NCBI GenBank assembly: GCA_023645945.1
Contig: JALAIB010000013.1
Span: forward strand, 1 to 50,939
Direction: 5' to 3'
Source: Diploschistes diacapsis
Taxonomy: Eukaryota
Length of the DNA: 50,939 nt
Under the pieces are notes generated by a model, which worked only from the letters and a program-made list of their open reading frames with translations, ran no database searches and had not been told where the DNA came from. Within the stretch, counting starts at the first letter, position 1, and the number at the start of each line of letters is the position of its first letter. Below, piece by piece: positions 11,200-35,055 of this stretch. Made by a program: the position numbers and the translations under genes.

Positions 11200-14108
11200 T
11201 CCTTCAAACCCCATTCTAATAGGTACTGTCAGATCCGAAAGCTTTCAGTCTATAAATCTAATTTACTCGGATACGATTTCGAGACAGCCTCTAACTTTTA
11301 TTCAAAATCCATTTTCTGTATTGCGATATCATCTTCCGTATTCTTATTCTTTCATCCTGAATTTCTGTTTATTAGAGTCTCTCAGCTTTTGTTGCAAGGT
11401 CCCATATTCTTGAAGATTTACGGTATTCTCGTCCGCCGTACTCAGATTAACCGAAGTAAAATCCGTTATAATTTAACTTAGCAGAAACTGTTAGATACTA
11501 CTAACTTGCCCCTCTAACAAGAACTGAGCATTCAGGAGCTCACTTACTGCACGAATGCCTAGTCCAATGGTCACCCTTGGATTCTTCCCTTCTATCTTTT
11601 TACCCTTAAGATTTCCCTTTATAGATAGCTAGTTCCCTGCGGTTTCTTTCTTTGCCATATCTCTAGCTAGTTGCTTTCCGGTTACTTGGGGTTCATCCTG
11701 TAAAATTCTTTGACTTGTTTCCTTTCAGTCTTGTAGCTATGATGGTCTGTAACGGCAACTTGCATTATAACTAGCCCCTTTATGATCATCGAAAGGAACT
11801 CATCGTGATTGCAAGTGGTCCCAGGCCGTGGATCAAATTTCATGAAACTATATTGGCTCTAAACCATCTCTGCCTTCTGTATAGAATGCTATCTCGGACA
11901 ATACCTGGGGTCTGTTTTGTCGTACCTTCAATAGCGTTCAAGCTGTATTCCTAAATGCAGCCATTCAGAAGAGTTCGCCGCAATCATGCAGAGACATAGG
12001 CCGCTATTTTGCAGTCAATACTCTCTCCTACCAAGGAATTGGTTCCCGGCTTTTTGGTCCTCAGAATTGATCACTCCGTCGAGATTCTATAATTGTTACA
12101 GTTCTCATTTCCAATGAGTCACCTCTTTGCCGAGACAGCCTCGTCAATATCACCTATATTCTCCATATGCAAATCAAGACTCAAGCAGGTACTTGGAGAA
12201 GACCCTATCTCAATCTCTCTGTAGTGTAGCTGCGGTGGTGATCTAGAAAGAAGCCCTTGTCTTAGTAAAATATGCCGAAATGATATTGTTATATAAATAA
12301 CTGACTGGCCAGGTGTTGTGGTCGGGTCTCAGAACGACATAAAATAAGTAATACATGAAGCATAATCGTTTATCTGCTATAAGTCATTAGAATATATTGT
12401 TCTATTCCAGCCGAGATTGGATTGGCCTCCCCGTTCGCGAAAATACTAATAATAGAAAATCAATTCTTATTATACGATCGATGATAAGACAAAACCTTTA
12501 TACTCCCCAGTAATATCTGCTTTGGGTTGGAAGATCCAGTCAAAGATATTATTAATAACAATATTTCCGTCTTTACCCCAGTCCCATTGTGTTTGAAAGT
12601 TGAGGCCCTCATTCTAGTCTGGAGCATCAACTTGCAAAACACGATTGAAGAACTTATAGAATCCCCAACTTGTTATCCTCACTCGGTTTTATTTGTGTGA
12701 AGGTCCATGTTTATCTCTAAATTCTTTGCTGTTTCGAAACAGATGTTCCTAGTTTCTTCGGAAGATTTCTACCTTCTTGCAATTCCAAAATTTTTGACTC
12801 AGATTTGAACTACTTCGTTAATGAAGATTTTATCTCTTCAGAATCTCATATTCAACATGCTATATGCTAACAGCCACTTACTTTAAATTTGGGTATTCGG
12901 AACGGTACGGCGATTGCCTCATCTCAAGTGACGGAAAGTGCCACCGCTTTGCTACCAGCTTTCCGTCCTTTTCGTTGGCGTTACTACCTATCTGTGCCCT
13001 TCTATGCGTTCTCGGTACTATTCCTGGATAACAGTGCTTATGGTTCCTCAAAGCCTAATATAATAGGAATCCGCTATTGAATATGCTGCATCGTCATGGG
13101 CGATATATATTGGGTTTCTGACACACAAACATCGTCCTGTCCATAACGTGGTAGAACATGGAAGAACTGTCTCTGGATGTTGATCGTACTCCTCCCAGGA
13201 GTATTTCTGTCACTCCTCTAAGCAACTTCTTAGCTCATCACCCCCTTGATCTTTCTTTCTTTCCCCCTATGTGATAAAGTCAATTCTGGATGTATGATGG
13301 ATTGATGATGAAGGATGATCACTTCCGAAATACTATGGGACATAGGCCCAAGCAGCGCCAAGCCCATCTAGTCTAGTCAAGACCCCATACAGGTCCCATA
13401 ACACCCTATTGCGGAATCCATTTGTGATAAGTCGGCGTGACCTTAGCTGTTTTCTAGACGCAAAATAGTCGAAAGGTCCTATGTATTGATAGCGTCTTCC
13501 TAGTTATCCTTAAGGATTTGCTACTAGAGGTCGACGGGCTAATGACATCCACCAAACTCCTATGACAATATCTAGTATCGCGTTCGACAGTGGCTCAAGA
13601 TGCATTCAAAGGTCCCCTTATTATATAGATACCAAAGCTAATGACCCGCATTTGATAGCCGTGGTTCCTGGACTGGATTTCATCAAAGCTTTCCTCTAGG
13701 CTCTCCGTAGTCTCCAATTCCTTGGAGAACATAACTCGTCTATAGCACTTCTAACTTCAATCTACTTCTCGACAACTCTTGCTTTGAGTATTACTGAACC
13801 ATTTTCCGAAAGTACCAGCTTTCCGAGTCAGGTATCAGGGCTCCTTGAAGCGAGATGTTCGTTACTGGACGCCCAATCCGTACTGTGATCCCTGAGGAGA
13901 TTTTGGAATCGCTCTGCGCTACCCTCATCGAGGTCTCTTTACATCTCGGTTGCCTCTTTAAATCAATGGTCAAGGATTGCTTCTTCTGTCCCTCCGCAGT
14001 ATGACTCCTTACGTCTTGTGGTAGATTTCTTGGCCTGTAAGAGTGTTTTGTCAGGGCAAGCTCTATTAGGCAGCCGAGGAATGCGGTATTGCCCGGCTTA
14101 AAAGTCAT
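11200..14108 (-). pseudogene. Unknown protein family, decayed copy A
   Basis: 12660->12290 translates as YKFFNRVLQVDAPD*NEGLNFQTQWDWGKDGNIVINNIFDWIFQPKADITGEYKGFVLSSIV**ELIFYY*YFRERGGQSNLGWNRTIYSNDL*QI, then after a frameshift YYLFYVVLRPDHNTWPVSYLY. Homologous to copies at ~20.2 kb and ~33.6 kb. Outer boundaries are inferred. Confidence 0.7.
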
Positions 14109-16423
14109 GGTTATTTTTTTCGAGCTTTGTCCGGCTGAGAGTTAGGTAGCTATCGTATACGTGTAATTATGTCGTGTTCCTCACGAGAAGCTTTGAACTT
14201 CCCAATGGCTTCACTACTAGCCAAATTGATCGCACTGTTTCGGGTTCCCTGCTCTTCTTTCCACTAGTATAGCGAAGGCTGGGAAGGGAATTTTTTTGTT
14301 CATTTAGGGGTATGAAGCGACGGACTGAAACCAACTTACAACCTTCTGATAGTTGAGAGATATATTGACACCTACCAAGAACTTACAGTCACAGAGTATA
14401 ATAAAGTTAAGAATAGATGACTGACGAGGACAGACGAGGAGCCCCGGGAGAGTTTATTGAGCTGCCAAAACGTGCTCCGTCTCTGTTCTCTGAAGTCCAA
14501 GACAGGAAATTTTTGTAAGTATGTTTCAATGCAACTATATTCGATGTTATACATGGCGGTTACGTAGAGAAGATCGTTTCCTGGTCCTATACGTCAGGAA
14601 CTGATGGAATATACCTAAGTAGCGTGGGTACTTCCAGCAAGACGATCGAGACTGATCTCGAGCTCGGCTACCTTTTCCTTACTCCAACAACAGGTAATCT
14701 ACAATCAGTTGTCGAAAGGCAAATACTTCAAGACGATGGTATTCAGCTGTAGCAAATATATCTTGCTCGGACCTGACCAAGCCTGGACTGGGTTGAAGCG
14801 ATTACACAATGACTAGAGCTAGATATCTTTAAATGCTAATTTTCTACCGTTCTTGAGGCCGGAAAAAATTCTGGATCTGTCAACGAAGCAACGCCAGGAG
14901 GCTGGGATTCCTCAAACACAGGCGTTTCTTGATTGCATGATTTGGCCTAATCCGACAAGTGCAAAAGAAAGACTCCTCCTTTGTGTGTCAGGACACAAAA
15001 CTTATAGTTCCATGAACAGGCTGAAACAGCCGTCCAAAGGCAGAAGTAGCACTGTCTGCTCTGCTTTTCCTTCTCAACGCTACGGCGATACGAACTGTTG
15101 ACCTGCTCCGCTTTTCCCGCAAAGCTGCAGTACGAACTTAATAAACTTAGGGGCCGATGATGGCATGTTTCCTGAAAACCATACGTCTCGGTGTTTTGGG
15201 GGTATGCATATGAGTCAGGCTTCAACGACAACAAATGCCTGTCAAGTGTCCATTCGGATGTTTCGTCTGCGTGTAATCCGTAGTGGGTTCTCTGCGGTAT
15301 TTCTATCCTAATCTCCATATTGAGCATACTTTAGATAAGCTGGACCACAGCATTCGATCCTTCACTCGTGATAACAAGTTGTCGAAATAAGCGTATTTAG
15401 TATGAGCGTGTACGGGGTCCATGGTGGTGGTACTCCTAATCCAATTTTGCATTAGGGGTTGACGGCCTCAGGGTCGATCCTCAACATAACCCACTCATAT
15501 TCTACTACAGCTTGGAAGCAAGCCTCATCTCTATAGGTAGGTTTTTAGTTTCCTGTGGTTATCGGTAGGTATGTGATTCTTCACGATACGGTAGGCGGAT
15601 TAAACCAAGGATTCCTAACAATGTTACTTATCATGACACTACCTCCTTCTTCATCATGTTGATGGAAGGCTCCGAGTGGGTTGCGTTGACTCTAACAAGA
15701 AGGTGAAAACGCTTCTCTCCCGTTCCTAACTGTTTCTAGAATACTTCTCGATATCTTACATAGTTGGTGTCTGAAGGAGAGGCCGGAGAACTCTGCGGAC
15801 CTGCTTGATATTGAATGTGCTAGTTGAAAATCCACTGTAGCGTTAAAAACCACTCAACCCTTTGCTTTGGTCCTTTAGTAAAGTAGTTTGATACTTTCAC
15901 TATGATATTACCCAGAGGAAGTTTCGAGGAAGTAGCCGATATTATTGATGGAAAAACCAAGAAAATACAAATCCCTCGCGAATTCCGTATGCTATTATTC
16001 GGCAGAGCTGCTTGGAGCCTCGAATAAATGCTGGTTGTAGAGATATTTTTTAGAGTCCCATATCATCTGTTGCAGTTCCACGTGCTCTGCTGCCTAAATA
16101 TCCCGCATTTTTGGCTGATCTTTCCTCTCTATTTCGACTTCCATTTCAGCCACCTCCTTGCTTATGTTGGGAGTCCGAGAAAATCTAGCAGATGCTCCGA
16201 CTCCACTCCTTTCCTCGTCCACTTCTAGGGACACAGGCGAGCCTGATGCTCATTCAACATCCTATAAGAGATATTCTTGAATAAAACAAGGCAGACATCC
16301 TGAGCGAAGCAAATAGCCGAGTACTTTACAGAAACAAGGACGGAAAAAGGCTCCTGCTTATTTCTATAAAATCTCTCCTTATATCAATTAGAGCAAGTTA
16401 TAGTGCCGCGTCCTCCCTGCTAA

Positions 16424-16690
16424 TCAAGCACTTGGACTGCGTCTAAGTAATTCATATATGCCAGGAATGCATACAAAATTCATGGAATTGTCGATGGAAT
16501 TGAAGCTTTGCCCGTTGTCCACGACAATGGGAGTAGTAAATCTTTCTGTGTTGGCTAAAGATTCTGGCAGTCTTCTTCTTAACTGCCTTGAAAACTTTGG
16601 AATCATTTTCAGTCCAGTACTCGAATGTCTAGGTCGTGTGGCTGTCTGGGGGTCCTGCCTATCTTGCGGAAGATCCTGAACGCTGATTTC
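16424..16690 (-). pseudogene. Unknown module, tandem copy 2
   Basis: QDPQTATRPRHSSTGLKMIPKFSRQLRRRLPESLANTERFTTPIVVDNGQSFNSIDNSMNFV; homologous to 17225-17420. Confidence 0.55.
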
Positions 16691-17029
16691 CTTCTCCCCT
16701 CCGGAGTAAGAGGTGGATTCTGGCCTGGCATTTTTCTTTTGAAGGATCGTTTCAAAAGGTAAGTCAAAAGCAGAGAATTCTTTTCTTAATAGCGAAATCC
16801 GTGAATCTTTCAGAGTGGGTGAATTATTTCATGATCAGTGAACACCTCTCAAGAACTGTGTCCACGAAGACATCCTAATTAGCTATATTTCAGTCTGCTT
16901 TCTTACAACCACCTCCTGGTAAATTAACAGCATTTTAGGCGTCTTCCTAGCCAGCATTGGTCTCGATGACAACAATCTGTTTTGAAGCTGCTTGATCCTG
17001 AAGGTTTCCTATCTTTTAACGAAATGTTT

Positions 17030-17420
17030 ATGTCAAAGACTTGGCCGCAACCCACTTTTCCTCATAGTCTTGCTCTGTGATACCAGCTGCTTTGTAGGTA
17101 ACTTTTTCTTCTATTTCTATTATGATGATCCTCAGATAGTCTGCTGTTAGGGCCACTGCCGTAATTATTTTCCGCTTTATTTCGCAGAATAACGCGTATC
17201 GCTCTTCCTTAGGCTGTTATCTTACGAAGCTCATGAACACGTAAATGGTATTAAAGCTTTGACCATTATTTATTATAATCGGTGTTATATATATTTTAGT
17301 ATTCGTAAGCGGTTCTGGTAGTCTGGTTAATTGTTTAAACTTAAGGATTATTTTTAAGCTTGACTGCCTAGATCTGGTGGGTGTTTGTGGGTATTGCGTG
17401 CCTGCCGGAAGTCCTTGGAA
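17030..17420 (-). pseudogene. Unknown module, tandem copy 1
   Basis: QYPQTPTRSRQSSLKIILKFKQLTRLPEPLTNTKIYITPIIINNGQSFNTIYVFMSFVR*QPKEERYALFCEIKRKI...YKAAGITEQDYEEKW; one frame with an internal TAA. Confidence 0.55.
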
Positions 17421-19699
17421 GGTGGACCGTCGCCTCCCTTCAGTAGTAGGGGGTGGGTTGGTTGGTCAAGAGTCCGAACTATACCTGGCAAGGAAATCAC
17501 AACTCGTTTTAACGGTTTCGAGTTGAGAGGAAGAACAGTTGGCCAATACTTACCCCAAGGCGTAGCTAGAATCGATCAATCCTCGTAAAACGAAATTGGG
17601 GGGACGGCTTGATCTGCTATATATCCTGCACTCATATACAGTCTTCCTGCCCGTCCCAAATCGAAGCAAGCCGCACTGCTCTATTGCGCATTCGAAGCGG
17701 ACACCTGGATAGGATGGCAGTGGACCTCCCATCTTCGGTAAATGTGTTCTTTCCAGGTCGTAATAGATGCAAGAGTATAAACTTCCAGGCCGTCACCTCG
17801 GAGGCGCTGGCCAAAGCAGCACAAACAAAGCATCCTATGACTTCTGAATGCAAGTAGAACCAGAGCAGCCTTTGGGAAAACCTAATCGCCCCACAGTATC
17901 TTAAGTATGATATAACTTCTTCCCCAAAGGCTCCAATGCATCGCAGTGATGAGACAAGATGTGATACTAACACCAATGTCAAACCCTATTTGGTTAAGCC
18001 CCGGTACTTTCCACGTCTTCCTGTACGATCGTGCGGGAGGTAGCTCTAGTGTAAGATCCTGTGTGGGTATTGCGGGATCATCCAGTATGTGTAGTGGGCA
18101 GTAAGAGCAGCATTCTGGTATCTTACTCTGCCTGTAGGGAAGTTGGACATAGGTGAGATCTATCCTGTGGACATTCCAAGATTCGGGCTCCCTGCATGGC
18201 TTCGCTTTCAATTGGCTTAGATAAACACAGAAAATTTGGATGTCATCTTTGCTTAATGTGCGCCAGTATTCCTGCCTTTCTTAGATCTACCAAGGGGGGT
18301 CATAGCTGCGGTGTTTGCAACGGTGGAAGATCTTGAGCTAGTTTTTCTTGGGAATTCATCCATAGAAACTTTATCATTTCTCTTCGGGAGTTGGGTCTTC
18401 CTCCTTGTTGACAATCCCTGATACTCTGTCCCTAAAACCGAGTGAGCTTTGACGTAGCAGTAACAACCACACTCTCTCAAACTCTGTCTGTCATTTCCAT
18501 ATGATTAATCGAGACGATTGTCCGTTCGCGAGATAGATATGTTAGCTTCTACCAACTTTGTGCCATGGTTAAACGCTAAACTTTTATCGAACCCTGTCCG
18601 CAGAGGAAGATGCTCTCTCGTTACAAGCCTAATAACTTGGTCACACGTCCCTGACGTATTATAGCAAAACTAGTCTCGTGGATGTCGTATATCGATTTTA
18701 AAGCGGTGTATTATCGATTAGGGCGAAGAGTCTTGGGTTACTAGATGCTTGAGCCTCTTTGGAAGCTTGGAAGAGTTGAACCTGGTTATTGTGGGAAATC
18801 GAAAGACTGAATGCTCCGCGGTCATACTTGCTGGCACAATCTTGAGCTCAAGGATGCGCTATCATCAAACTCCACTCTTGTGCCCTTCGATAGTGTGCTT
18901 GAGCATCTTGTTTGAGGATGGCGATTAAGGTTGATAACTCTTTGCTTGCAGTGTCTCCGTCGCTCTTGCTCCTGGTTTAGAGGGATATGTCGCATCGCTC
19001 CTCAGGTTTCCTCTGGACTCTGGCGTTCTTCCGAAGTTGCCAGCTTTCCCAAACTTGTAGCTGAGCGGTGAGCGTTATATCACTTTGTCTTCACTCTTCT
19101 AGTCTCAAGTAGTTACGGTGGTCAATAGAATATAGTACCTTTGACATATAAAACCAGAAACGCCTCTCTTTGACCTCGCAGTCTTGAGATTGGATTTCCT
19201 GAAGTAGGATAGTTCTGACGTAGGCAGGAGAGTTTTTAAGGTGCCATCTATTGATAGTAGTGGTCCTAGCAGTACGCAGTATTCGTGAGTTTGCACTTAA
19301 AAATCTCTTTCCTGCCTCTTCTTTAATCCCTTTCTCTACCTTCCAATTACTTTTAATATTCCTTTCCTATCCATACCTTCTTTCGCTATACGATAGCTAT
19401 ATTGGATTATTCGTAACCATATCCACAATTCTTTTCTTCAGAGACCTGAACCTTACAAAGACTATTATCTTCCTAGCGTGCTCCGGAACTTGGCCATAAA
19501 TATCCGACCAAATTAGATTTTATTTTTCGTTTAAAAACCGGTCTTCCTATTCTTCATATCTGTGTCACGCGGCGATAATTAACTTAAAGTTATCGATTTT
19601 CATATAGATAACCTTTCTTACGCCACTGTGATATTAACCATGCCGGTTTATAAAGTATTTAAATACCGTAATCGAGATTGCGCACGGGCTCTTGACAGA

Positions 19700-21050
19700 T
19701 TCTCAATAAATCGAATCCCGGAAACGCCATAGCATGATGTTTTTGCAGTACTCCCAGAGTGCCTAGATCTCTTTTTTCTAGTTGTCTCATAATGACCCTT
19801 TGATTACGAGTGTGTCCGGGATTCCAGCTTTCGAGGGCTAGCTCCTGAGTCTCCTGGGCAAGGACTCAGCGTCGTCGGAACGCATGATCTGAGACCAAAT
19901 GGAGCCAGAGCGGTAATCCCGGTCAGGTTTGGAAACCATCTTCAAGTAGCCAAGTTTTATGGGAGAGGGTTGGAATGGTTAGAGACCCGGACGGTGCTCC
20001 TAACCGGTTCACCTAAAATGACAACCGAAGAACAGTAACGAGATTCGACAGGAGTCCTATCACGTTCCTTGGCCAGATGATTTCGGATAATAATCTGCTG
20101 TATCCCACTGAAGTACATGATACGACTCCGCCCAAGATTAGACTGGCCACCGCGCTCTCGTAGATGCCATTGATATAGGGCAAATTCTTGCTGCACAATC
20201 GAGCCTAAGGAAAGACCCTTGTAGATGCCGACACTATCGGCTTTTGCTTCAAAAATCCAGTCGAAAACCCCACTGGCGATAATACTCCTATGCAACTGCA
20301 TGTTTCATTCTGCTAGGAAGATGCTCCTAATATCGGTAAACCAGCGATAGAGCGGGAGGATAACAGTTCCTTAGGTTTGTATCGTTTCGCCGATGTGGTA
20401 CCGTGACGAAAGTCTCGACATCATGTAATTCGATCCATATGGAGTTCTGGGTGTCGACGATGGAGAAGGGTGAGCCTGGTTTGATCTTATATCCAAGGTG
20501 GGTGACCTGCTCCACATACAGTTATCTACCATCGAGGATTCCCCTACAGATGTTCGATCACGGGGCTTTGCTTGGTACGATTCAAGCAAAGAGAGGCACC
20601 CACCCAAACCCTACCCATGGCGTCTCCTAGGATATTTTTACAGCGTGAGGATTCAACCATCACAAACCATCGCCCCTGTCTGAGTCCCAGTGCGGAAACT
20701 ACAGAGGAGTCCCCTCGATTGTTACGATTATTATCCTCTCGTGCCACTAGGCCACACCATAAAGAAGGCTTTCCTCCCAGCTCATCATGGCCCGCAGCCG
20801 AATTCCGGTTGAACTGACCAAGAAGTTAAAGATCCTAAGCTCTGTATGGTAACCAAATCTGTCCTGGAGCCAGGCAAGTTGATAGTCCGAAAAGTAATAG
20901 GAAACACGACAATTCACGCTTAGAGCGTAACGGAAGATCAAAGGTTGGTTTTCCTGATTGCGCCATTGTTCTTGACAGCTTCTTTTTGGACATAACAGGT
21001 GTGGTTCTTGGGTATACTTGAAGGGTATTCTCGGCCTAGACAACCTCCGC
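19700..21050 (-). pseudogene. Unknown protein family, decayed copy B
   Basis: ORF 19957-20301 contains SGVFDWIFEAKADSVGIYKGLSLGSIVQQEFALYQWHLRERGGQSNLGRSRIMYFSGIQQI. Upstream, 21043->20327 is a single frame broken only by point stops. Boundaries approximate. Confidence 0.7.
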
Positions 21051-21885
21051 CATCCGGTTTGCGGATGTTGTTATAGCTCGATATTAGCCTAGATTCTTCT
21101 GTTGAAACCTCATATAGATAAGTACGGGCTTCCCTGCAGTATATCCTGAAGGGAACTTTGTAGTGGCTATATCAAGAACTAAGCAGCGAGAATAAGCGAG
21201 TATGTGAAGGCCGCAGAGACACTAGAGAGCAGACAAAGAGAAAAGAGAAGAGAAAGAGAGGAATGTACTCGAAGCGAGAGGAATATATAGCAAATTTGTT
21301 TGCTACATGATGGACGCATCGCCTCGGCTCCGCGTTGTAAATCTTGTGGGAGTGAATCCATGTAGGTTCCATGGACCGTCCCGCGGTTTGCACAAACACA
21401 GTAAGTAACGAAACAACGACAGAGTGAACTTCACTCCTGCACGTGCAACAGTTTGAGAACCAGGTGATGTGTAACAGACATCTCTTCTACTACTAATACC
21501 CATACAAGAGCGTTAAGGTTGCTTCAGGTTAAGTATAAGATAGATTTGAGTTACTTGAAGTTCTTCTCAGAACTTTCAGAATTTTTTTACAATCAATCGG
21601 TTTGAAGCCGTCTCTTGAGCTTCTTGCTTAGGCCTAAAATGGTGGAAACGGTGTTTGGCGGGTAGATTATTCTCAACATCACCAGTGCTACAGCCCGGCG
21701 AAACGGCAGAAATCAACTGTCTCTAATGACGAGTGGGTTTTCCGCCTTCTTTTAGCTGTTGAACATCGTCAAATCATTATCTTTCCCAAGCGCCATGGGA
21801 GATTCCTAAGGCAAGAATACCACCATAAAGAACGACTGTACCATAACATGCAGTGTATCATAGATGCACTACCGTCATCAAAGCC

Positions 21886-24800
21886 TCAAAACCGATTCCC
21901 TCTACCCTCCTGTACTTCCCCATCAATTCCCATTTCCGCAAAATCTCGCTCCAAGCCCATCAACCCACGCGCAAAATCCTTTGTATCAGGCTGCAGAAAC
22001 ACCGTGCCATTCCTTCCATTACCATCCGCCTCAGTACCGGGCTTCCTGCGGTTCCTCGGCGCGATACTTTTGCCATATGGCTGGTCGACCTGCTCGATCG
22101 TTTCAAAGGCCAGCTCCTCCCCGTTCTCGTCCCTAACCTTCACGGTGGGATCATATTTGGGCGCGCGACCCATTTCGTATTGCTTGACCCACACTGTCTC
22201 CAGGCCTGCTGCAATAAGAGCAGCCGAGTCGTGGCCGACGCGCTCGGCAATCATGTGGAGGCGATCGATGGTCCAGATGCGTTGTAGAGGGTCCACGTAT
22301 TGTACACCAGCAACGAAGAGAGGCAGCATCGTCTCTGCCAAAGGGCCGCCGAAGACTGGATTTAGAGGTTGGTCTTTGCCTGGGGTTTGCATGCCGAAGA
22401 CGATGCGGCCAATGCTGTTGGCCCACTGGGCGGTTTGTGAGGCGGCGACGCCCGAAGCCACCATCGAGGGTGGGGGCATGGAAGGATGTGTACGTGCCGA
22501 GACAATGCGCGCCATGTAGAAGATAAGCCAGCAGAGGGCGACCTGGTCTGTACGGTATTGGAGCGCGAGGCCAAAGGGCGTGGGAATGACCGGGCCGGCG
22601 TCGACTGACAACGGTGCGAAGGAAGGCCCCAGTGAACTCTCATAGATAGTAAGAGCCTTTTGGATACTTTTCCACTCATCATCTGCTTCGGCTGTCGCAG
22701 TCGCGAGCTCAAAGTCATTGTCCGGCGAGGGCGGGACGTAGATGTTCTCTCGGGGAGCCGAAGCAAAGGCATTCGGAAGGTCGTAAGTCGTTCCTGTGTC
22801 AGGTACCATGCCATAGAAAGAAGGTTGAGCTGGAGAAGCTGAAGGCCCACCTGCCGTTTGAGGCCCTTGCGCTGTTTGAGCAGCAGTCGTCGACGATGCC
22901 GCCTGACCGCCGAAGGGAGGCACAGGCGGAGGCCCGTGTGGTGTCGGAGGGGATCCACCGGGAGGACCTTGGGCTGGGGGGCCTGGGAACATTCCTGGGG
23001 GAGGCCTCCAAGCACCACCATTCATCTTCACTGCCTTTAGCTTGCGGACCACATCTTTTCCTGCAAAGTCCCCGATGCGACCCATCAGCAGGTTCACGTG
23101 ATCCAAGCTGCCGTAAACTGCATCAATTCTACCGATTGGTCCTCTGGGCGGACAGGATGTCCATCGCTCATAAGGAAGCCTACGCGGGTTAGAAAAGCCG
23201 GGGGGTTCCTCGGTTACGGCGCCACAAGACTTACATAAGGCGTCGGCCTCTTACCAAACTCTGTATCATGTCCAGTTTTGTAAAGAACCAGAATAGATCA
23301 CGATACGTCTGGAAGTTATCCATTTCTTTTTCACTGGGCGGACTATTGGACGCAACTTTGGATTCATCTACCACACTACCATGACTTTCGTATTTAACCT
23401 TGACCCCGGTCATCTGACTCACAATGCTTTCGTCGATACTATTGGGCTCAGGTACCCAAGGCAGATCATCGCCATACGACTGGAAGTGCGCATTGACGAA
23501 AGGTCGCGACCAGTCGACAATAGGGTTCGAAGCCAGTCGAGCCTTCTCACCAATTATACGTTTAGTCATTCCCTTGAAGTCCACCTCGATCAGAAGCTGT
23601 CGAGCCCCGGCCAGATGGCAGTTCCATTTAGCATGCTCGCCCGAAATTACCTCGAAATGACCCAAGAGTAGAGTGGCGGCGAGCGTAGATATGGCCGCTC
23701 GTTTCGAAGGAATCGACACACACCTGTGTACGCGTCGAAGTGCGAATTGGTAATGCTTGATTGGGATAGTGAGGGGTGTGCTCTGGAGACGGGAGATTTG
23801 TAATGCCGCAACAGCGAGCATGGATTCCAATAAAGCTGGGTTCGACAGCGCTAAGGTTGGTATCGTGTAAGTCCAGAGTGCTTGATGTGACTTGGGCACG
23901 GGGGTACCCGAGAAGAACAATGCAGGATTCACCGGATGTCTTCCGAAAGACGATATCAGTGGGCCGGTGGCGGTCACAAAATGGCAGAAGATCTTTGCCG
24001 TTGCTGGATCCATCAAGGGTGAAATTGAGAATCTTGGTACGTAGTGGGCCAGATCATTGGAACCGTCAAGGAAGGAGTGGTACCATCTTAGGTCCCGGTC
24101 CGCATGGCTGGTTGCTAAAGCCAGAATATTCGCAACGTCTCTTGGCGGAGGGTACGAAGCAACATCTTCATCCGGAGGAGCCTCTTCCTCGTCTGACATG
24201 ACATCATAGTCATCATCGTCATTATCATCATATTGTTCTCCCACGGGGCCTGAAGCTGGCTCGTGCAATATAGCTGGCCCAGCAGATGGAAGTGCTTGGT
24301 TAAACTGGGGACGGCTTGGAGTCGCTTGCCATTGGTTTGGGTCTTCGGAGGCCGATTCTGGGGAACTAAAGGTTAGCCAAAACAGCACGCGTCAATCCCG
24401 AAGCCCGTATAGTCAGACACGAATGGTTTATAAAATGGCATACCCAACGCCGCGCTGGTAATGTGGTGGTTTCTAGTGTACATGGAGAGGCTGTCGTAGA
24501 CACTAGCGGTCGAGCCAAGAGAGAAAGGAGCCATAGCAGGAAGAGAGCCAGTGGGAGCGCTATCCGGCGTGGGATAGTGGTGATGTTCCGGAGAGAAGAG
24601 CGTGGAGTCTTGCACCCAGCCAGGCGAGGGCTGCTCCATATGTGATTGCGCAATTACCACATGAGGCTGGTGAGGTGCCGTGACTGGTGTCATTGGGGAA
24701 GACATGCTTGGTTGATGCTGCCATGGCGTTGCCACGCCAGGATGTCCCATGGAAGTGACAGCCCGTGCCGCAGCACTCGTAACCGCCGGGAGAGAAGCTT

Positions 24801-25376
24801 CGCTGTGGGTAGGCGACTGCTGTACGCCTGCAGCAGGAGCGAACTGATGATATCTTTGTTGCACATCCGGCCGGATGACATAGTAAGCGCCCGATGTACC
24901 AGCTTGACTTGTTGGCCAATTCGGTGGAGGTTGGCTTGGTCCCGTATAGAAGTCTGCCTGCCCGGATAGTCGAGGGACAATGGGAGGATATCGGGAGTAG
25001 GTAGCCGAGCCTGGAGGAGGGTTGAGATATTGTTCAGCATGCCTGGAGAACGGCCATTCCTGTGGGCAGTTGTGCGGTTTAATGATTATAGGACGAGCGT
25101 AGCCATCGCAGCCACGCCTCGATTTAATGCAGTTGGCACAGACCGGGCGTTCCTCCCCACACTTGATTCTTCGCCTGCGGCAAGCTATGACTTGTCAACG
25201 GTGATGCGGTGTGCAGGATCAGCAGGTAACATACTCAAACAGCCCGTCTTGGTACGCCTACGGGCCTTCTGGTTGGCCTGTCCTTTTGCGGCGTTGGCAC
25301 CAGATGCTTGAGGCTTCTCCGAATCGCTCTTCGCGGCTGGGCTCGAGGCCTCACTCTTGTCGTGTCCTTCACACAT
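21886..25376 (-). CDS. Zn(II)2Cys6 transcription factor with C-terminal fungal-specific TF domain (PF11951-like), ~1099 aa
   Basis: Exons 25235-25376, 24444-25184, 23235-24357, 21886-23179 (3300 nt, frame-consistent). Spliced zinc cluster [37 protein letters not shown]; later IFCHFVTATGP, LWTYTIPTLAL, LAATLLLGHFEV, HLAGARQLL, YERWTSCPPRGPIG. Confidence 0.92.
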
Positions 25377-26134
25377 GATGTATAGTGTGTAGCTGATGGT
25401 CTATTCCTTCGAGGCTGATGCGGTGTGGCACGCAGCCAATAATATTAAAGCGAACGAAGGACTGGAATGAACGTGTATAGTCTGATTAAAAGAGTGTGGT
25501 GAAGGAAGCTCGGGAAGGCTCAATGAAATATGGAGAGGGGGAGGGATTAAGATTATTATTATATCTCATGGACATGAACAGTAGGTCTTATAGCGTGGAT
25601 CGACAAGAGCGGGGTGGGCATAACAAGCCTTACATAGACATTCATAGAGAGAGACACTGACTGGGGTAGCGGCTCCAGAAGAATCACGACGAGCGGTACG
25701 ATGCCTCGGGTTCGAGTGCGGAAGATAGAGGTAGGCTGGCTGGGAAAGACCCGAGCTTCGAGTCGTCAGTAATTGCAGACAAGCAGGCAAGGGGTAGAGA
25801 GACAGTTGGGCTGCAGTAGCTTGGATGAGTGCCAGGTGGTAACTGGTAAGTAGAGTTATAGGTAGAATAGTAGATAGAAAGGCAAGGATAGATAACCTTT
25901 TGGTGAGCTAGCCCAAGCCAGCCTAGTCTGGGTTCTTGGTACGAGAAGGGGTAAGTTTACCAGTAGTGCTGGTCGGAATAGGCACCTTAAGTTTACTAAC
26001 GTACTCCTTCCAGTACTAGGATTTACAGCATGGACCAGAGGGCGCGTGGTGCTCTGTGTTTGTCGCAGGCTGGTAGTGTGGGTTGCATCGAAGCTATCTT
26101 TAGACTGTAGTTGAAATTAAAGGGATGTCTGCAG

Positions 26135-26194
26135 TAACTATGTACCATCTGCTAACTATGTACCATCTGCTCTACTATCTGCTTTATTATCTAC
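26135..26194. repeat. Short tandem repeat: 18-bp unit x2 plus two degenerate 12-bp units
   Basis: taactatgtaccatctgc repeated exactly at 26135-26152 and 26153-26170, followed by tctactatctgc and tttattatctac. Confidence 0.8.
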
Positions 26195-29100
26195 TAGGTC
26201 TTGGCATCGCTCTTGGCAACTGCCTGTTGCTGCCTTTTGCCTTGAATTTGCCTAAAAGAGTTCTTGCGGACTGTGCCATCTGCCTTGTCAAGAGTCAACT
26301 CACCACCTAACTGGCCCGAAAGTGACTACCCAACAGTTCCTACACACTACTGAGCACCACAAGCGGAGGCCTGGATGCAGCCGCGAGGAAAAGCTTGGCC
26401 GTGGTGGAGCCCGCCTACGAGGTACAGTACACAGTAGTAACACGGATAGGGGGGTCATCACCCTTTAGCTACGGTCACAGGTACTCGTTTGGGCTTTTGT
26501 CTCGGGCATCACTTGAGGGACTGGCCCGTGGCTTGTGCCTCGACAAAAATGCCCCTGAGATGTGTCGAGGATGTCAGTCGCTTATGCACAAACCACGCCA
26601 CTCAGGCTCTTTCATACTATTTCTATGTTTATGAAGCTATTCTGTGAACTCGGCATCTTCCCTTCGCCGTTTTGGGGATGCCCAGACGTTGAGCAACCCA
26701 CGCACGGTCAATTTCAAGATCGTGTAGTGTCCTAAAGGGGATGGGCAAACAAGGTTTAAGGTTCTTCGTTCACCTTGCTAGCGTCTCCCCCGGTCTGCCA
26801 TTCGCTTGCGGCCGCTCTCGATTGGCTCTATACCTGTTTAACAAGAGATCTATCTCCATCTAAAATTGTTGCGAAAAAACACGTTTTCTTCTCCAGCCGT
26901 CCCTCCCTGACCCTAGATCCAATTCACTACACGACCTTACTGTTGCACGCAGGCATACAGAGTTCTTAAGGTTTGAACCTATGCTGTCATTCACGTGGTG
27001 GTACTCCTGGACGCTGTAGCGGCTGAAGCTCCAATATCACACTAGACTGGGCCTCCTCGAATATGCCCTAGCTTGAGACTCCATAGGTCTGCCCACCAAG
27101 ATATTGGAAAACGTGGACATCTTCCAAGCTCACTTACGGTTAGCTTTGGTCGATAAGCCCAGAGCCCCCCCCCCTTCGACAACCTGGGATTTCATACATA
27201 AAAGCTAGGGCAATTGCACCGTGATGCGCTTTACGACCACGCATGAAAGATGCCATTTGACGCCCCAAAGCTGGTTCCCGCCAGACCAGTTAACGGTTTG
27301 CATTGAAGAATGTGTGGAGGTCCATCGCAAGGTCATGCAATGCATAACGCAAGGTGGCTAACAACGACCTCGTGTAGCATGCAGCGCAGTCAATGCTTCA
27401 CTTTTCCCCAACGAGGCAGCTAAAGTCTCTATGCAGTATGCAGACCGCTGTACCTCCTGCCACAAATTCTCTTGGTTTTGGTTCATCCAGATGAAAACCA
27501 ATACAATCCGATTATGGCCGTTGCTGTCTAGTTGTTTCAGCTATTTGTCGCTTGGAATTGCGCACTTTATTAAGATAACCTTGCCCGCACGAGCCAATTG
27601 AAACATGGTTCTTGTTCGCTTGTTTCTGTAACCCCATTCTCGCTACCGCTGGCCAATCATCTGTCTTCTCTTGCATGTACACGGTTACACCCCAACGACC
27701 TCTGCAAGACTATTTGCACTGTGCAAACCTAAACCTCATGGCAGGCATGTACTTTGTCCCATGTGCGTTTATCACGTTGCAGCAACCGTGCCAACAACGT
27801 GCCAACATGAAACAACCTGATGTTGTCTATCGATTCTATCTTTAGAAAAAGGGGAAACTTTGAATAGCTAGGCAGAGCGCGGGATGATTTTGGAGCGGAG
27901 AAGCCACGTGAGTGCGCGGAACGCGTCACTATAACGCGATCATCTTGGTATAGCACGCGTGAGATTGTCCAAGAGATTTCGATATGGTGGGTGCAAGATG
28001 GCTACTCGGACATGGAGGTCGACTGAATAGAATCGAAAGGATGCACCAAGCTGGGGCAGGTCCGTAGTCATCAAACGCTGAGGTCAGAGTCGCAAGACAT
28101 TTATTTGTTTTTGTTATGGATGATGATCCGATAAGGTCTGCAGCGACCTTCAATTCTCTATCCATCAATATAGTTTCAACGAGTTCAGCCCCGGACCTGC
28201 AGAAGCTTTTACCCTTTGGCGTAAGGTTAAGCGAATCTGCAGCAGCTAGCGTCATTTTTGGAGGTTCCGCACAACAACACACGCTAGAATTTCTGCCATT
28301 GTGGCTTTCTCCGCTCTCCACTCTCCACTCAACTTCAACTCCACGCCAAAATGAGACGTCTCCAATGGCCTTGAGGCTCTCTGTTAGTGCTAGCCCGGAG
28401 CTTGTCTTCAGACTGAGTCACTGAGACCCTTTATCGATCCTTTCACTCGAACCTGCAAATTCCGGCTACTGGGCTGGCCAGCGTTGATTCCGCAGGCAAC
28501 CCGGCCTACAACCCAGACGACGGTCGATCAATGTCTACTATTCCTTTTCCCGATTTCTCCTTAACCAATACCGCTAATCTATCTCAACCTTGGGCTACGT
28601 GCCGCTCTGTCTTGGACATAGAGATATCTAGTTAGCCTCGAGGGTTGATTGTTACCCTCACTTCTATCCGCGGCGAGTGCCGCAAATTACAATCGGTGCA
28701 GGTACGACAGCGTCCTTGCAAGATTCAGGTGCTAGCCCAGCCGCTCATCGTGTACGTACGACCGCTTCTGGTGAGGACGATTCGAAACAGCATCCGTTCG
28801 AACACGATATGCTTAATCTTCTAATAGCCCTACATACACCATCATAGGAAAGGGGGTACACAATGCTGGATTGCGCAACTTGCCCGAGCATCGGTGACGC
28901 TATGTTTTAGAAATCCAAGGCGTTTCATATTGTCTCCGTGTGCTTGTCCCACGTTGCCGAGGCGTTGAGCAAAAGCAATATCAAAACAAGAATTGTGATT
29001 GTTCCTGCATTGGCGCTCACGCTTGACTCCAAGATACCACCTTGAAGCCGGCGACGCATGCGTCTGTTCTGCATTCAAGTTAGGTTGTCCATGTTCAAGA

Positions 29101-30770
29101 TGTCACAGTTACCTGCGTTGACACGAGCAGACCCTTGCCTGCGATGCCCCCTCGTCACTTGAAACACTGCCTGGATACCGCATATACGGATCTGACGACC
29201 GCGTCTCGCATCAAGGGGCAACGATGAAGGCGTCCTTTTGCTGCAGAAAACGGCGTACACCGCCTATTGAACTCAACGGCCAGAAAAAAACATCTGGATC
29301 CTACCCTTGTAGCTTGGGTCTAGAAGGCGAGGATTTTTTGGCTGCCATTTAGCGACCCAGCATATTATCTACCCAATGTGTCGTGTCACCACGTGGGCCT
29401 AGATGTGGTAGTGATCCCCATTATCTTTTCTTCCACTACTTTGGAAGGACAGAGAAAAATTGCCGGTTAACGGATGCAGCACACAATCTAGTGGTACTCT
29501 TTAGGCCCCTGCTTCGCGGAGGGGCAGGACTTCTGTCAAGCCTTCGATCCTCGCAAGGTAGTATTGATGGCAAGACATGCCCTGAGGGTATCGATGTGGC
29601 TAGCAGGCCTCTTTCAAGGCATCCTCCGGCCAAAGCCCGGTAGGGGAAAACGAACCCACAGTACTTTGCCTGCGTTTTGCAGCGTTCCGCAACTTGCTAT
29701 GTGGGTCGCTCTGTTGGTCTCGAGCGTTTTCGATCCTCATATAATTCTATCCGCACCGTCGTTGATGTGGCTTGTCTTGATCGCTTCTACCACATCTTTT
29801 GAAGCGTCGCCAAGTCGTTGCAAAGAACGCATGAAGCAATACGAGGAAATCTTCTATGATGGAGGCCTTGGCAAGTCTGCAGAATCGTAAGGGCGCCGTT
29901 CAAGTCAGCCCTCAATCGCCAGGTGAGACAAGGTCGAAGATCCTTGAGGCCCTGCGACCGTCTCCTCTGTTAATCTCCTGCTAATCAGACGCCACACAGT
30001 GCTATAGAATTCCTTCCGTCTCGTTCATTACGCAATCGCCTTGGACGCCTAGGCGAGATCCATCTACTTGAAAGCACCATCCTTAGAGCATTCTCATGGT
30101 CGTGTTGCCTCATCTGGCCAAAGCAGGTCTATACTCTACCAGATCACCCGGCCGGAAGGATCATTGGTACCTTTCAGGCAGGCGGAAGTTGGTTACCATC
30201 CTGAAAGCGATCCTCATTTCTCAACGTGACCAGACACCTTCCTAGTGAGGTGCTCCAGCAGCGCAGTCCCTTCATGTCGAGTTGTTCTATGTATTATGTC
30301 TAGAGGCTACCTCGGCCGCTGCGAGATGGAGGTTGGAGGATCTCTACGCACTTTGGAAACGCGTTCTTGGCACAATAGAGCTTGCAGTTTGAAGAATCGG
30401 TACAAATTCAGTATAGAGTTGATGATCAGTGCCAATTCAAAGCCCAAGCTCGGCAAAGCATACACCGACCATCAGTCCTATTGGACATCATCTCTGTTCA
30501 CTGCGAGGGTCGTTAACCCTCCTATGTGTTGCGGTGTTGGGCCCATTGACTTTGGAGCGCAATGCTTTCGATGACTGGATATCAGAGAACACAGAGCAAG
30601 TACAGGGCCACACCTATGTCAAGGCGCAGCACCTGGAGCAATGGAATCAATGGTCGCAGCATGCATCGATGGGGAGGCAATATGTGTAAAAAAGAATCCA
30701 ATAACGTGACAGAAGCTCATGAGTATACCTCGACATGAAGCTAAGCGGATTATAAGCCCAGGTACGTTCA

Positions 30771-30791
30771 CTTTTCGCTTTTCGCTTTTCG
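30771..30791. repeat. (CTTTTCG)3 tandem repeat
   Basis: cttttcgcttttcgcttttcg read directly. Confidence 0.8.
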
Positions 30792-32639
30792 CTTTTTCCG
30801 AGGCGCGGTGTGAGGCGGAAAGGGCTATACTACTAGTTCTAGTTCTGCTGGCCTCTTGAGCTCTGAGCTACGATGCTTGGCGCTCTTTCCACCCCGTGAC
30901 AAAGTTTTGAAAATAAAACCCAACAGCAAGTATTACTGAGACCCATAAATGACTCGAGAGATAAAGCTACTATTTGGAATTGATACACCGGCCCAGGAAA
31001 ACAATCTCCATCATGCCCGTGGCGGCTCGACACCGCTTGTAGTTGTCCACGGTCAGGATTCTGGACTCTGGAGTTACCTTGCCCGCTTGCCTGCTGGCCC
31101 ATGGCTTGTACAGAGATACTATTTTTATAGCTGTCCATACCATTCCCGTCATTACGCCAATGCAGTGACGTGGCCATGGCTGGACTGGACTGCTATGTCT
31201 GGTCCCGTCATTGTTGTCACGTCGTGTTGCGTGACTTGCGTCCCCTGTCAAAAGGCAAAATTTTTCTTGCCTCCCGGCAGTGCCGCCTCCCGTGACGGCT
31301 TACGGAAGTGTAGCATGGCCAACCATCCCGCAAAGGGATAACATTTCATCTGACTTTAATAGATTACGATCTGCTATCCTTCGCAGCATCTTGTGCTAAT
31401 CTCTGCCTTGTTAGAGATTGGAAGGCAGGAAACCGCTTCTCGGAACATCCACCGCTTGCATTCTCGAACCGGAAGTTCGCATGGCTGGCTCGGTCGGTCA
31501 GCCTGCATCAAGCCGGCTTCAAAGTCGAGTACGGAATAGATTCTTGATGCTGGAGGTAGGAGGCACAACGGGCAAGAAGGCCGCTCGCGAGGTAGGGCTT
31601 TTTTGTTGTGAGTGAGGCTGAAAGGAAAATGAGGCCATACCATGCCACGAGTTGTGCTCCTGAGAGGTTCTCTCCAGGTTGTAACGACATTGCGTGCCTT
31701 GGAGAGTCTGTTAGTTCGGCCCTTGGTGAATCGAGTAGGCGGATGGCAGACAGCGATTGGTACATGATCACTGCTACCGCTTCCAGTCTTCATAGCTGAA
31801 CGAGACTATGGTGATGCTGTCAGACTTTGGAAGCGTCAATATGCCAAGAATGGCGGTGACTACAAACTCTAGTAGGTAGGCCTCGTTGCTTCTGATACCC
31901 TACTGAAATATACAAGTCCACCTTGCCACAGGCTTTTACTACAGTCTTGCATCCATATGAAATGGACAATGCATCGTTGTTGCGAAGCATCATCATCAAG
32001 TTTGAATTGGAACACTGCACGCAAGCCAAAGCCAACTGGGAAGCCTCCAGGTAGGTGCATGCTCGTTGTTCAGACTGTGGATTCGAAGGACAGATTCCAA
32101 GATGTCTATGGCCTGCGGTTACTCTGATCCCTATGGTCTCTGGATATTACCAGAACTCTCGACCCAGCTGCGTGTTTGGTCTAGTTGGACTCGAGCTCCT
32201 CGCTCTCCCTGGCGTATGCAAACTCTAATGAAGTCACTTTCTCCATACGTGAACCGGTGCTGTTGTTACTCGATACCGCTGCCCCGGACACTGCTTGCTT
32301 CTCAGGCCTCGATGGGTTTTGGTTGCAATGCCAGATGGGCAAGCAGTGCTAGCCTGGCGAAGCCTAAGGGCAAGACAAAGCCATCGTTTCATTTTCACGA
32401 GCCCGGAACTCCTACCATGTGGCTGGGTCGTCAGATTACGGAAAAATGTCAATTACGTTATCAGGGAAAAAGAAGCATCGCAAGCCTACACTATTGAAAA
32501 AACATTGTCAGTCGTCGAGCAAGCAGACTGTTTCCTGCCGAGATCCTGTCTGCGGTTGCACCATTGCTCCTTCATCCCGTATAGCATTATATCATTGAGA
32601 GCAACTAAGGACTTCTCGGCCCATCACAGCCTCGAAGTT

Positions 32640-35055
32640 TTGTAGAAAAATGATCCCCTATGTTCACGAACAGAGACCATCACTATACTTCCATCGAAAA
32701 GTACCCATCATTCTTTTGATCCTCCATCTTTGATGCAATACCAGGATTATTGAGCAAGCTTAAGATGTAGTCGATATGAACCGCCTCAAGATGAAAATTG
32801 TACGAAATGTTGACGGAGTATCCTTGGAGTAACCTTCTCTAGGCCCATTACGAGACTCTGTCCTCCTTGTCAGCAGAAACTGGTTACTGGTCTGCTGTGA
32901 GTCTTCTAGTATTGGTTACATTCTCCGGTTACGTTAAGTAGCTCCATTCCTTCTCTAATTGCTTTGAGCTGTAATCAATGTACGAAAGCCTCTAATAATA
33001 TCTAATCTAGGAAGGCTCGGTGGTATAGCCGCGTACTGTAGGTCTACCTCCCTACAAGACGAGTTTATTGGGCCTAACTTCCCTTCCCTAACCAGTATCT
33101 CGCAACTTCCTCTTACTCCTACATACTTCTTCCAGACCATGAGATTTCATTCCATTCACAATTCAATCAGTCACTGTTCACAGAATCCTGTCATCCTTAT
33201 GGTAGCTTGGGAAGAGTTTGTTAGCGGCCAGCACCTTCCGATAAGTCGCCGTAATGATCTCCGCCACCGTCTTTCTGCTAGTTTAAAGGGGTTTCTAATT
33301 CAAAAGGGATCTGGGTGTTGTTCTTCACTTTCCTCCCCAATATCGACCCTGTCGTTCCCGTTTATTTCTGCCTGCCGGAGAGACAAGACTCCATGCGAAA
33401 TCTTGCCCCATCGTTCTAGCTACCTCGATTCCGCTTTAGCTGCGCTATGTAGCCCTATAGAAAAAAGTGCTTTGCAGACTCCATGATCAAAACTTGAATT
33501 ACTTGTCGAAGGGAAAAGGTAGAGTTTTCGTTTCTACTCGTTTGCTTTCCTATATTCCACTATAGTACATAATCCTGTTCCACCCTAGGTTGGATTGGCC
33601 CTCCACGTTCACGCAGGTGCCAATGGTAGAAGGCAAAAATTCTTACCATACGATTGAAGATAGCGCGTGAGACGTTTGTAGATACATGCAGCACCATCTG
33701 TTTTGGACCCTGAGATTCAGTCAAACATATTACTAATAAAAATTGCTTCCGTCCTTCTCCCAAATCTCACTGTGTTTTAAGATTGAGGCCAGAAGGATTT
33801 GCCCCAGCAGCTGAAGTATTTGATGATTTTTTTTCTCGTCGTAATCAGGAGCGTTTCACTTGCAGAATACGATTGAAGAATTTGTAGCTTCCTAGTTTCC
33901 TTTAGCCACCCTGGCTGACACGTATCCCCGGCCATCCCCGCGCGCAAATGCTCTTTGGGAGAGAGATGGAATTCGGATTTACCCGAGTTGCGCCGAAGCC
34001 GAATATGGAGGTAACCCATTGTTCTGTGGACGGGGCTCTTAGTTGGAGCCTGCGGTTTGGTTTCCCCTAGCGACTGGCTTGTTAAAACCCTTACGACTTG
34101 TGCGTCTGGGCATGTCGGTTCCAAGCCTCGAAGTCTTCTTCTTTCCCCAAGAGAAAAATAACTCGGTTGCTCGTTCCTAGCCCCGATGCCTTGCCATTAT
34201 GCGATACCACGAGATAATTCATTCCATGTTATATGTTGATTTAGACTCTTCCACGACCCAGGTATCAGCGATTCCTCCAAGGTTATGCTTCGATGCCGGC
34301 AGCAGCGAAGTATCATGCTATACCTGCAACTCATTGCGGACTGGAAAACAGACGTCAGACTTTCGATACAAAGTATCGGCCAACTGTAGACACGTTGGTA
34401 TTGCCTATCTGTCTTTCCTTAATTTGGGCTGCGGGAGCAGCTACACTCCCTACACGTTTCTGCCAGTGCCCGTGTCAGAGAAGGGTAGTGAGTGTTGCTC
34501 CTGTCCCAAACACTTTGGAATATCTTTCTCAAGCTATCATTGTTCCAAATTTCCTGGCAGTTTTGGTTGGCCATCTGTGTACTCGCTAATAGATAGGCTG
34601 GAAGCCAAAATCCGAATCAGTGTTATCCTGACCGTAATTCTCGCCTTCCGCTGCCTATCTATAGTCCTTTGCTAGTGACTCATGGCAGCGGGCGTCTGAT
34701 TGAGGGTGTGCTTTTTCCATCCCATCCCGACTTCGATCCTTCGTAGATTCGAAGCACGCGAGAAATAAAATCCCTCCGTCGGCCCTGTAACTGCACGTTC
34801 TCGAGAACCACCTGTGTGTTCTTGGCCTGAGTTGGCTTACCGAACCTATGCCTTGCACTTGGTCGGGGGTCGGAATTCTTCCTCGGTGGCACAAAAATCA
34901 TAGGCAAAATCTTGTATCGAGAAGTGAGTGTAGATTGCTAGCCAGTCTGAACGAAAAATCTTATTTGTGTAAGCCCATGTCAAGCGACATCGTCGTAGTC
35001 GCTGACGCCATGGCAGCGACCTCGTGTGCCAGCTGTTGGTAACAGCAGCCAGCAA
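32640..35055 (-). pseudogene. Unknown protein family, decayed copy C
   Basis: 33890->33550 translates, with several frameshifts, as GSYKFFNRILQV/NAPDYDE...IFISNMFD*ISGSKTDG..IYK..SSIVW*E/FAFYHWHLRERG/GQSNLGWNRIMYYSGI*. YRKSDVCFPVRNELQV*HD near 34340 matches copy A YGQDDVC/VRNPIYIAHDD near 13120. Outer boundaries inferred. Confidence 0.7.

Follow-up and report, generated by a model that had tools for sequence, protein, structure and literature searches.

Fragments of one large reading frame in the window

The window considered here, the whole 50,939-nucleotide (nt) contig C335 of the 29-Mb assembly of the fungus Diploschistes diacapsis, holds between its genes the remains of an open reading frame (ORF) of ~900 amino acids (aa). 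Five pieces of it lie on the minus strand within 22 kb, none of them with an intact catalytic site. Fragment A (12288 to 12661), recovered by tblastn and profile matches, comes from the middle of the ORF (aa ~453 to 593 of the reference copy) and is broken in several ways: four TAA/TAG stops and a frameshift interrupt it, and part of its interior is deleted. Its end lies just short of the strand bearing the HxD motif, and an FRHI remnant can then be read from the sequence at 12280 to 12269. Fragment B (20089 to 20286; 87 bits) covers aa ~502 to 567, is truncated on both sides, and lacks the catalytic residues; its core reads through 115 codons without a stop, so that truncation alone disables it. 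Fragment C (33535 to 33898; aa ~455 to 555) has several frameshifts and retains a 48-nt stretch that fragment A has lost. Two more pieces had escaped an earlier, sequence-only reading of this DNA. Fragment E (17010 to 17480; profile 101 bits) corresponds to the N-terminal ~125 aa of the same ORF and is nearest to an integrase-linked copy on contig C1329 (58%, 110 bits), while fragment D (16472 to 16750), also N-terminal but shorter, is 63% identical to E and a weak protein match by itself.

The sequence-only reading had described A, B, and C as three disabled paralogues with a common core. The homology of the three is far above chance: blastn aligned A with C at 68% over 256 nt (E 6e-14), tblastx aligned A with B at 51% over 65 aa, and the local DNA scores for A-B, A-C, and B-C (94, 167, and 92) exceeded the maxima of 15 shuffles each (47, 38, and 44, respectively). 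The YKFFNRxLQV stretch common to A and C was seen again. The similarity DVC..VRN.....HD reported farther upstream in the same two loci was a chance resemblance, since in the 800-nt upstream regions its translated score was matched by 22 of 100 shuffles and its DNA score by 34 of 50. An excess of third-codon-position differences, also reported earlier, was present in all three pairs, with counts at positions 1, 2, and 3 of 22/16/38 for A-B (p = 0.006), 22/15/45 for A-C (p = 1e-4), and 18/9/39 for B-C (p = 2e-5). Each of the four stops in A lies one transition from the sense codon of B, and stops that are all TAA/TAG and all reached in this way form the pattern of repeat-induced point mutation (RIP).

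The description as three disabled paralogues holds for A and C, which are broken; B is free of stops and merely cut short, and the pieces number five. Nor are the three loci whole small paralogues; each preserves just a small central part of the ~900-aa ORF. We are confident that A, B, and C, together with D and E, are decayed fragments of one intronless ORF carried by mobile elements. The copies had also been said to flank a transcription factor gene, and this is borne out: a host Zn2Cys6/Fungal_trans_2 gene lies between B and C on the minus strand (21886 to 25300, ends approximate), with a Zn2Cys6-type cysteine motif and a Fungal_trans_2 match at E 2e-13.

The carrier element in Diploschistes diacapsis

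The core of fragment B matches 15 places in the genome. On contig C877, the frame around it runs without a frameshift for at least 880 codons and contains 48 TAA/TAG stops. With the C877 frame as the query, 52 matches were scored out of 105 candidates; nearly all had TAA/TAG stops, the two that were stop-free were both partial, and no intact copy was found among the 52. An expanded host gene family with birth and death of members, one of the two explanations in the sequence-only reading, is therefore unsupported in this genome. A profile of the genome's own copies was built from 28 of them, with stops read as X. The short contigs with ORF copies that were measured have 30 to 37% GC and RIP-type dinucleotide indices. 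Transversions between two of these copies (L017 and L016) number 65, 26, and 134 at codon positions 1, 2, and 3; RIP makes no transversions, yet these are third-position biased, indicating that the copies diverged as proteins before death, as had been proposed.

The flanks of the copies identify the carrier. Of 14 upstream regions examined, 6 have the C terminus of an integrase (INT) immediately before the ORF in the same orientation; the others are broken by insertions or contig ends. Contigs with reverse transcriptase (RT), RNase H (RH), and INT overlap those with INT and the ORF at 79 to 83%, as for the RT-RH-INT contig C1174, which overlaps C1176 at 83%. A common segment downstream, at the ends of the copies, is a long terminal repeat (LTR; 169 candidates, 40 scored). 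We found 33 LTR copies of 234 to 236 bp with inverted ends; 22 passed a filter for a polypurine tract, and NTAN followed in all 22. One solo LTR is bordered by CTAG on both sides. The 5' LTRs are followed by a primer-binding-site-like motif starting with TGG; no tRNA matching it was found in the 29 of 39 tRNA-pattern loci scanned, and tRNA-Pro is a candidate primer. The element is thus a Ty3/Gypsy retrotransposon with 235-bp LTRs and 4-bp target site duplications (TSDs), and the ORF occupies the stretch from the integrase to the 3' LTR, in an LTR-pol-extra ORF-LTR structure that was tiled from overlapping short contigs, none of which holds a whole element. The readings of the 235-bp segment as a terminal inverted repeat (TIR) or as the 3' end of a long interspersed nuclear element with twin priming were ruled out by the polypurine tract, the primer-binding-site-like motif, and the TSD. 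That the ORF is, in this genome, the extra gene of a RIP-killed Ty3/Gypsy family can be stated with little reservation. The lineage is presumably Ylt1-like.

Several element copies, among them L013, L037, and L170, are inserted in copies of the same family, so that a 5' LTR borders directly on sequence of the ORF or the integrase. Several ORF copies (L146:1040-1731, L047, L031, L057, and L062) are cut short by a different high-copy element that has tandem repeats of ~72 bp.

The pieces in the window score higher against the genome's own element copies than against outside relatives (81 versus 58 bits for A, 70 versus 51 for B, and 110 versus 26 for E); P0050 was left out of the outside relatives, as its score was identical to that of the genome's own C3919 piece. 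Similar scrambled, lightly mutated pieces occur on four other long contigs, where they are duplicated, inverted, and out of order. It is very likely that the pieces in the window are scrambled relics of the element: the element may have lost its LTRs and pol, or small pieces of it may have been pasted into this DNA. They might instead be the in situ remains of a host gene family or of a carrier without LTRs, one member having been captured independently by the Gypsy family. Several observations speak for that source and count against ours. With five gag/pol queries, tblastn detected no gag or pol in the window, and an LTR profile detected no LTR (best E 1.1); LTR and pol are likewise missing beside the pieces on the four other long contigs. 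The window and its pieces are not RIP skewed, unlike the element copies, the five pieces occupy one strand within 22 kb, and some relatives are annotated hypothetical genes on long genome contigs. Perhaps their shortness or their divergence spared the pieces heavy RIP. We nevertheless consider a host or non-LTR source unlikely, given that the pieces are closest to integrase-linked copies, that the search of the assembly yielded no intact gene, and that the duplicated and inverted pieces on the other contigs fit element debris. The second explanation of the sequence-only reading, a protein carried by an undescribed mobile element, is correct as to element carriage and incorrect as to the carrier, which belongs to a known class (Ty3/Gypsy here, DNA transposons elsewhere); it is the cargo that appears to be undescribed.

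The intergenic DNA of the window is a patchwork of element debris. For 11500 to 21000, the listing had no RNA holder. A short repeat at 13267 to 13403 also abuts a family fragment on C3919 and is present on C2577 and C4350; its position next to the C3919 fragment suggests common scrambling junctions. An interspersed repeat of ~200 bp lies beyond the 3' end of the transcription factor gene (21475 to 21683; eight genome matches, 69 to 81%), and more degraded repeat pieces matching other contigs are found at 19358 to 19716, 11128 to 11318, and 34887 to 35420. A broken or fragmented gene at 43653 to 45913 has an NPHP3_N (NACHT-associated) domain, and a stretch upstream in it is, we assume, nucleoside-phosphorylase-like. 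Ordinary host genes encode a heme peroxidase-P450 fusion (38752 to 42078), which we take to be of the Ppo type, a mannitol dehydrogenase (3908 to 5368), and an ABC transporter (48390 to 50590).

The predicted dioxygenase and its carriers elsewhere

A full HMMER scan with the family returned 889 clusters at E ≤ 1e-3, 162 of them at E ≤ 1e-30. Of 30 clusters that were looked up, 9 had a species name (Sclerotinia borealis, Candelina, Coleophoma, Chaetothyriales, Heterodermia, Coniocarpon, Peziza [two], and Periconia); all nine are hypothetical or unnamed proteins of Pezizomycotina from several classes, a range that is drawn from the best 150 matches and may be wider. Word-index homologue searches returned nothing with a 262-aa piece or with the copy alignment, and A3 gave near-identical proteins only; no relatives were found among viral contigs. 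The aligned relatives conserve the residues expected at the active site of an Fe(II)/2-oxoglutarate (2OG) dioxygenase, namely, H617 (100 of 106), D619 (104 of 106), H722 (101 of 107), and R732 (101 of 107), and the H-D-H triad is complete in 97 of 107. Upstream lies a CxC...C..H motif, with C370 present in 90 of 90 filled rows, C372 in 89 of 91, C416 in 96 of 96, and H419 in 91 of 96; the motif is a putative Zn site.

Standard domain libraries recognize the family poorly. Pfam gave no match, PhyH (PF05721) included, to eight of the genome's own copies. Among 38 relatives, 15 matched PhyH at E ≤ 0.05, weakly and with two above the cutoff, and none matched Gig2/YbiU (PF07350), Tet_JBP, AlkB 2OG-FeII_Oxy_2, or JmjC at the same threshold. 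NCBIfam on six relatives yielded no match, and PDB sequence searches yielded no significant one. The ORF does not encode the mobility enzyme, and its match to PhyH is weak; the match to a transposase or housekeeping domain that would have refuted the earlier reading did not turn up.

The AlphaFold model of one relative, P0004 (predicted local distance difference test score of 80), consists of a helical N-terminal domain, a disordered linker (residues 251 to 367), and a large C-terminal domain. Comparison of this model by VIA placed YbiU first (Z 20.2; root mean square deviation 3.3, 283 residues aligned), followed by Gig2 (Z 19.2), EvdO1 (Z 15.1), and human PHYH (Z 13.7), the PhyH group lying at Z 13 to 15; NgTET1 scored 8.5 (rank 40, among representatives that lack some TETs), ALKBH3 scored 8.4, and NMAD-1 scored 8.3. 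Foldseek agreed, its top matches to the model all being double-stranded beta-helix proteins. The N-terminal domain alone retrieved no fold above Z 5.5, in an alignment that is misregistered in the last ~30 residues and shows no absence. Of 60 long relatives, 41 have a motif resembling a nuclear localization signal (NLS) in their N-terminal half, whereas 200 shuffles gave 16 on average and never more than 25. With its triad, 2OG-binding Arg, and modeled beta-helix fold, the ORF product is a predicted Fe(II)/2OG dioxygenase. The model and alignment together make it highly probable that the architecture is that of a helical N-terminal domain, a linker often with an NLS-like motif, the CxC...C..H motif, and a dioxygenase domain of the PhyH/Gig2 type with HxD...H...R.

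A scan of metagenome contigs confirmed at least 289 stretches of the family, from which 80 loci were kept. A Gypsy pol lies upstream on the same strand in 29 of these; the remainder comprise 6 loci beside a long ORF of no known kind, 3 beside a Helitron RepHel, 5 with other neighbors, and 37 with too short an upstream region, 2 of which have gag-pol across a contig end. The 31 Gypsy-linked loci fall into eight groups, six of which have an RT-bearing pol. The order of aspartic protease (AP), RT, RH, and INT was found in L070, L096, L106, and L126, and the six pol ORFs scanned had no match to a chromodomain. L073 is a complete element of 10.6 kb with open gag, pol, and extra ORFs, identical 274-bp LTRs, and the TSD CTAC; 4-bp NTAN TSDs were present in five of seven elements examined. 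For the pair L070/L073, the ratio of nonsynonymous to synonymous substitution rates was 0.082 in the extra ORF and 0.071 in pol, and it was 0.12 to 0.28 in five other pairs, one more being saturated. Within LTR elements, the extra ORF is under purifying selection as strong as that on pol.

The gene is also found in DNA elements. IS3EU transposons have TAY...RTA ends, a 6-bp TSD, and a DDE transposase. L078, a 6.4-kb element that encodes an rva_4 transposase along with the oxygenase, has 72-bp TIRs and TAC...GTA ends and may be IS3EU-like, although its TSD is 5 bp where 6 bp would be expected. L103 and L082 are inverted-repeat elements that contain the oxygenase gene with a remnant of a Gypsy integrase, which suggests that the gene was captured from a Gypsy element. 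A RepHel adjoins the gene in L088, L092, and L097, and the L097 gene has inverted repeats of its own. In a tree of the family, the Gypsy label has to change at least four times, but the 24 rows that could not be classified keep the tree from separating repeated capture from an ancestral link, and it gives no direction. This was a quick IQ-TREE run with the Shimodaira-Hasegawa-like approximate likelihood ratio test only and with long-branch and composition warnings; it omitted 20 of the 31 stop-rich loci and every locus that did not span the domain.

Some neighbors of the gene recur. Diverged paralogues without HxD are located at L082:5010-8141 and 21486-22703; the long one keeps CxC...C..H and shares an 11-kb inverted-repeat element with the intact copy. 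A conserved ORF family of ~1,280 aa with recurrent acidic motifs adjoins the oxygenase gene in 6 of the 80 loci (L074:359-4195, L077:3197-7060, L115:1146-5094, L142:1242-2540, and L080:18841-19737); searches of Pfam gave no match to it and of the Atlas no usable one, and it is a candidate for an undescribed transposase or partner gene. Helicase genes of the RecQ/DEAD-like or SNF2 kind adjoin the gene in L068, L076, L080, and L132, and NACHT, WD40, TPR, or Sel1 neighbors are found at other loci; such surroundings resemble, we presume, large mobile regions.

Proposed role and relation to known systems

The explanation that we favor, and regard as reasonably probable as a whole, is that of an element-carried oxygenase with an anti-silencing role, of which the window contains relics. 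The intact protein would be a nuclear oxygenase serving its element. It would oxidize a methyl mark on DNA (5-methylcytosine or N6-methyladenine), on the RNA of the element (N6-methyladenosine [m6A]), or on a chromatin protein, and oxidation of the mark would weaken host silencing, parallel to the transposon-borne TET/JBP enzymes, from an independent recruitment in a different branch of the 2OG superfamily. Host silencing is what retrotransposons and DNA transposons have in common, and a gene that both retain most likely acts on it. For the activity by itself, that of a nuclear, element-serving oxygenase on methylated DNA, RNA, or chromatin, we put the chances at even or slightly above. Somewhat more tentatively, and just on the lower side of even, we suggest that the transposons of Pezizomycotina share a second, non-TET eraser, a dioxygenase with a Zn motif and the PhyH/Gig2 fold that is swapped between LTR and DNA elements.

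Several findings pull the other way. The fold is much nearer to small-molecule oxygenases (Z 13 to 20) than to NgTET1 (8.5) or ALKBH3 (8.4), and comparisons of the N-terminal domain turned up no fold that binds nucleic acid. Carriers are heavily RIP mutated in D. diacapsis, and 31 metagenome loci have at least 12 stops; carriers that are still RIP mutated indicate that the gene gives no lasting protection from RIP. Of the 80 metagenome loci, the 37 with short upstream regions are unclassifiable, and the 6 with the long ORF and the 5 with other neighbors have no recognizable element. A single family accounts for 22 of the 31 Gypsy-linked loci, and at the RepHel loci, the TC...CTRR ends of a Helitron were not located, the link being adjacency only.

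The oxygenase could also serve the element by hydroxylating a protein, such as a host restriction or RNA interference factor or the element's own Gag or integrase, or it could be a selfish driver, with no erasure of methyl marks. PHD2, OGFOD1, and a trypanosome RESC chain have the same fold (Z 9 to 14), carriers remain RIP targets, and the HxD-less paralogue kept beside the active one in L082 hints at noncatalytic roles. The gene moves, however, between retrotransposons and DNA transposons, which would be expected to share silencing marks and no proteins, and both precedents for such cargo, described below, act on nucleic acid, so that we give this possibility little weight. A metabolic cargo, that is, a small-molecule hydroxylase (acting on a sugar, a lipid, or a secondary metabolite) that hitchhikes on elements while benefiting the host or its niche, seems to us similarly improbable. 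The nearest folds, YbiU, Gig2, EvdO1, ColD, KanJ, SnoK, EctD, and PHYH, are mostly small-molecule enzymes, and PhyH clusters are the neighbors in the Atlas at 0.89, which is a lead only; against this stand the 500-aa N-terminal extension, the conserved Cys/His motif, the NLS-like enrichment, the location of the gene inside unrelated element classes, and the lack of biosynthetic-cluster neighbors among the 46 neighboring ORFs scanned.

We return to the anti-silencing role and what it would mean. Extra conserved genes are rare in LTR retrotransposons and point to the limiting factor of the element. Here a different branch of dioxygenases, with hundreds of diverged hypothetical members, is found in Gypsy elements and DNA transposons of ascomycetes that have RIP and DNA methylation. 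We found no published description of the family in a search whose scope lay outside Repbase, most subscription journals, and supplements, which may record an unnamed extra ORF. If the proposal is right, this would be the first anti-silencing oxygenase encoded by a fungal retrotransposon, and the PhyH/Gig2 branch would gain a nucleic acid or chromatin substrate and possibly a new chemistry. A substrate in methylated DNA, RNA, or chromatin would make the family a new enzyme class in epigenetic conflict; it might also give a clue to what the uncharacterized YbiU/Gig2 proteins do. Because intact single-exon copies exist, the substrate is directly testable; the fragments in the window are dead, and their value is as a pointer to the family.

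Among known systems, the carrier resembles the nonchromoviral fungal Ty3/Gypsy elements described in the accessible text of PMC3248453, with AP-RT-RH-INT order, TG...CA-type LTR ends, and a polypurine tract, and differs from them in having a third ORF of ~900 to 1,200 codons after pol; the main text of that article never uses the word "oxygenase." The protein shares with YbiU/Gig2 (DUF1479, PF07350) and PhyH (PF05721) the beta-helix with HxD...H...R, and its best structural matches, YbiU and Gig2, are 11 to 18% identical to it. Those proteins are stand-alone cellular enzymes of ~250 to 450 aa, whereas the present family adds a helical N-terminal domain and the CxC...C..H motif and lives in mobile elements. 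The first precedent for such cargo is the AlkB of orchid Ty3/Gypsy elements, described in the accessible text of PMC9289625 as an m6A demethylase, active in vitro, that represents a plant AlkB captured recently in one orchid lineage. There, too, a 2OG dioxygenase is an additional ORF of a Gypsy LTR retrotransposon; unlike it, the present family is non-AlkB (Z 8.4 to ALKBH3), fungal, and deeply diverged, with 23 to 49% identity among relatives and no known cellular parent. The second precedent is the TET/JBP dioxygenases, which, according to the accessible text of Kojima (2025, PMC12730594), are an extra gene of fungal DNA transposons from several superfamilies (in Pezizomycetes, IS3EU and Helitron among them), have passed between superfamilies, are proposed to counter silencing, and are reported to be absent from retrotransposons in fungi. 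As in the present family, an Fe(II)/2OG dioxygenase is the extra gene of several transposon types. The present family differs from TET/JBP in its PhyH/Gig2-like fold (Z 20 versus 8.5), in its length of ~900 aa with extra domains, and in its occurrence across several classes of Pezizomycotina.

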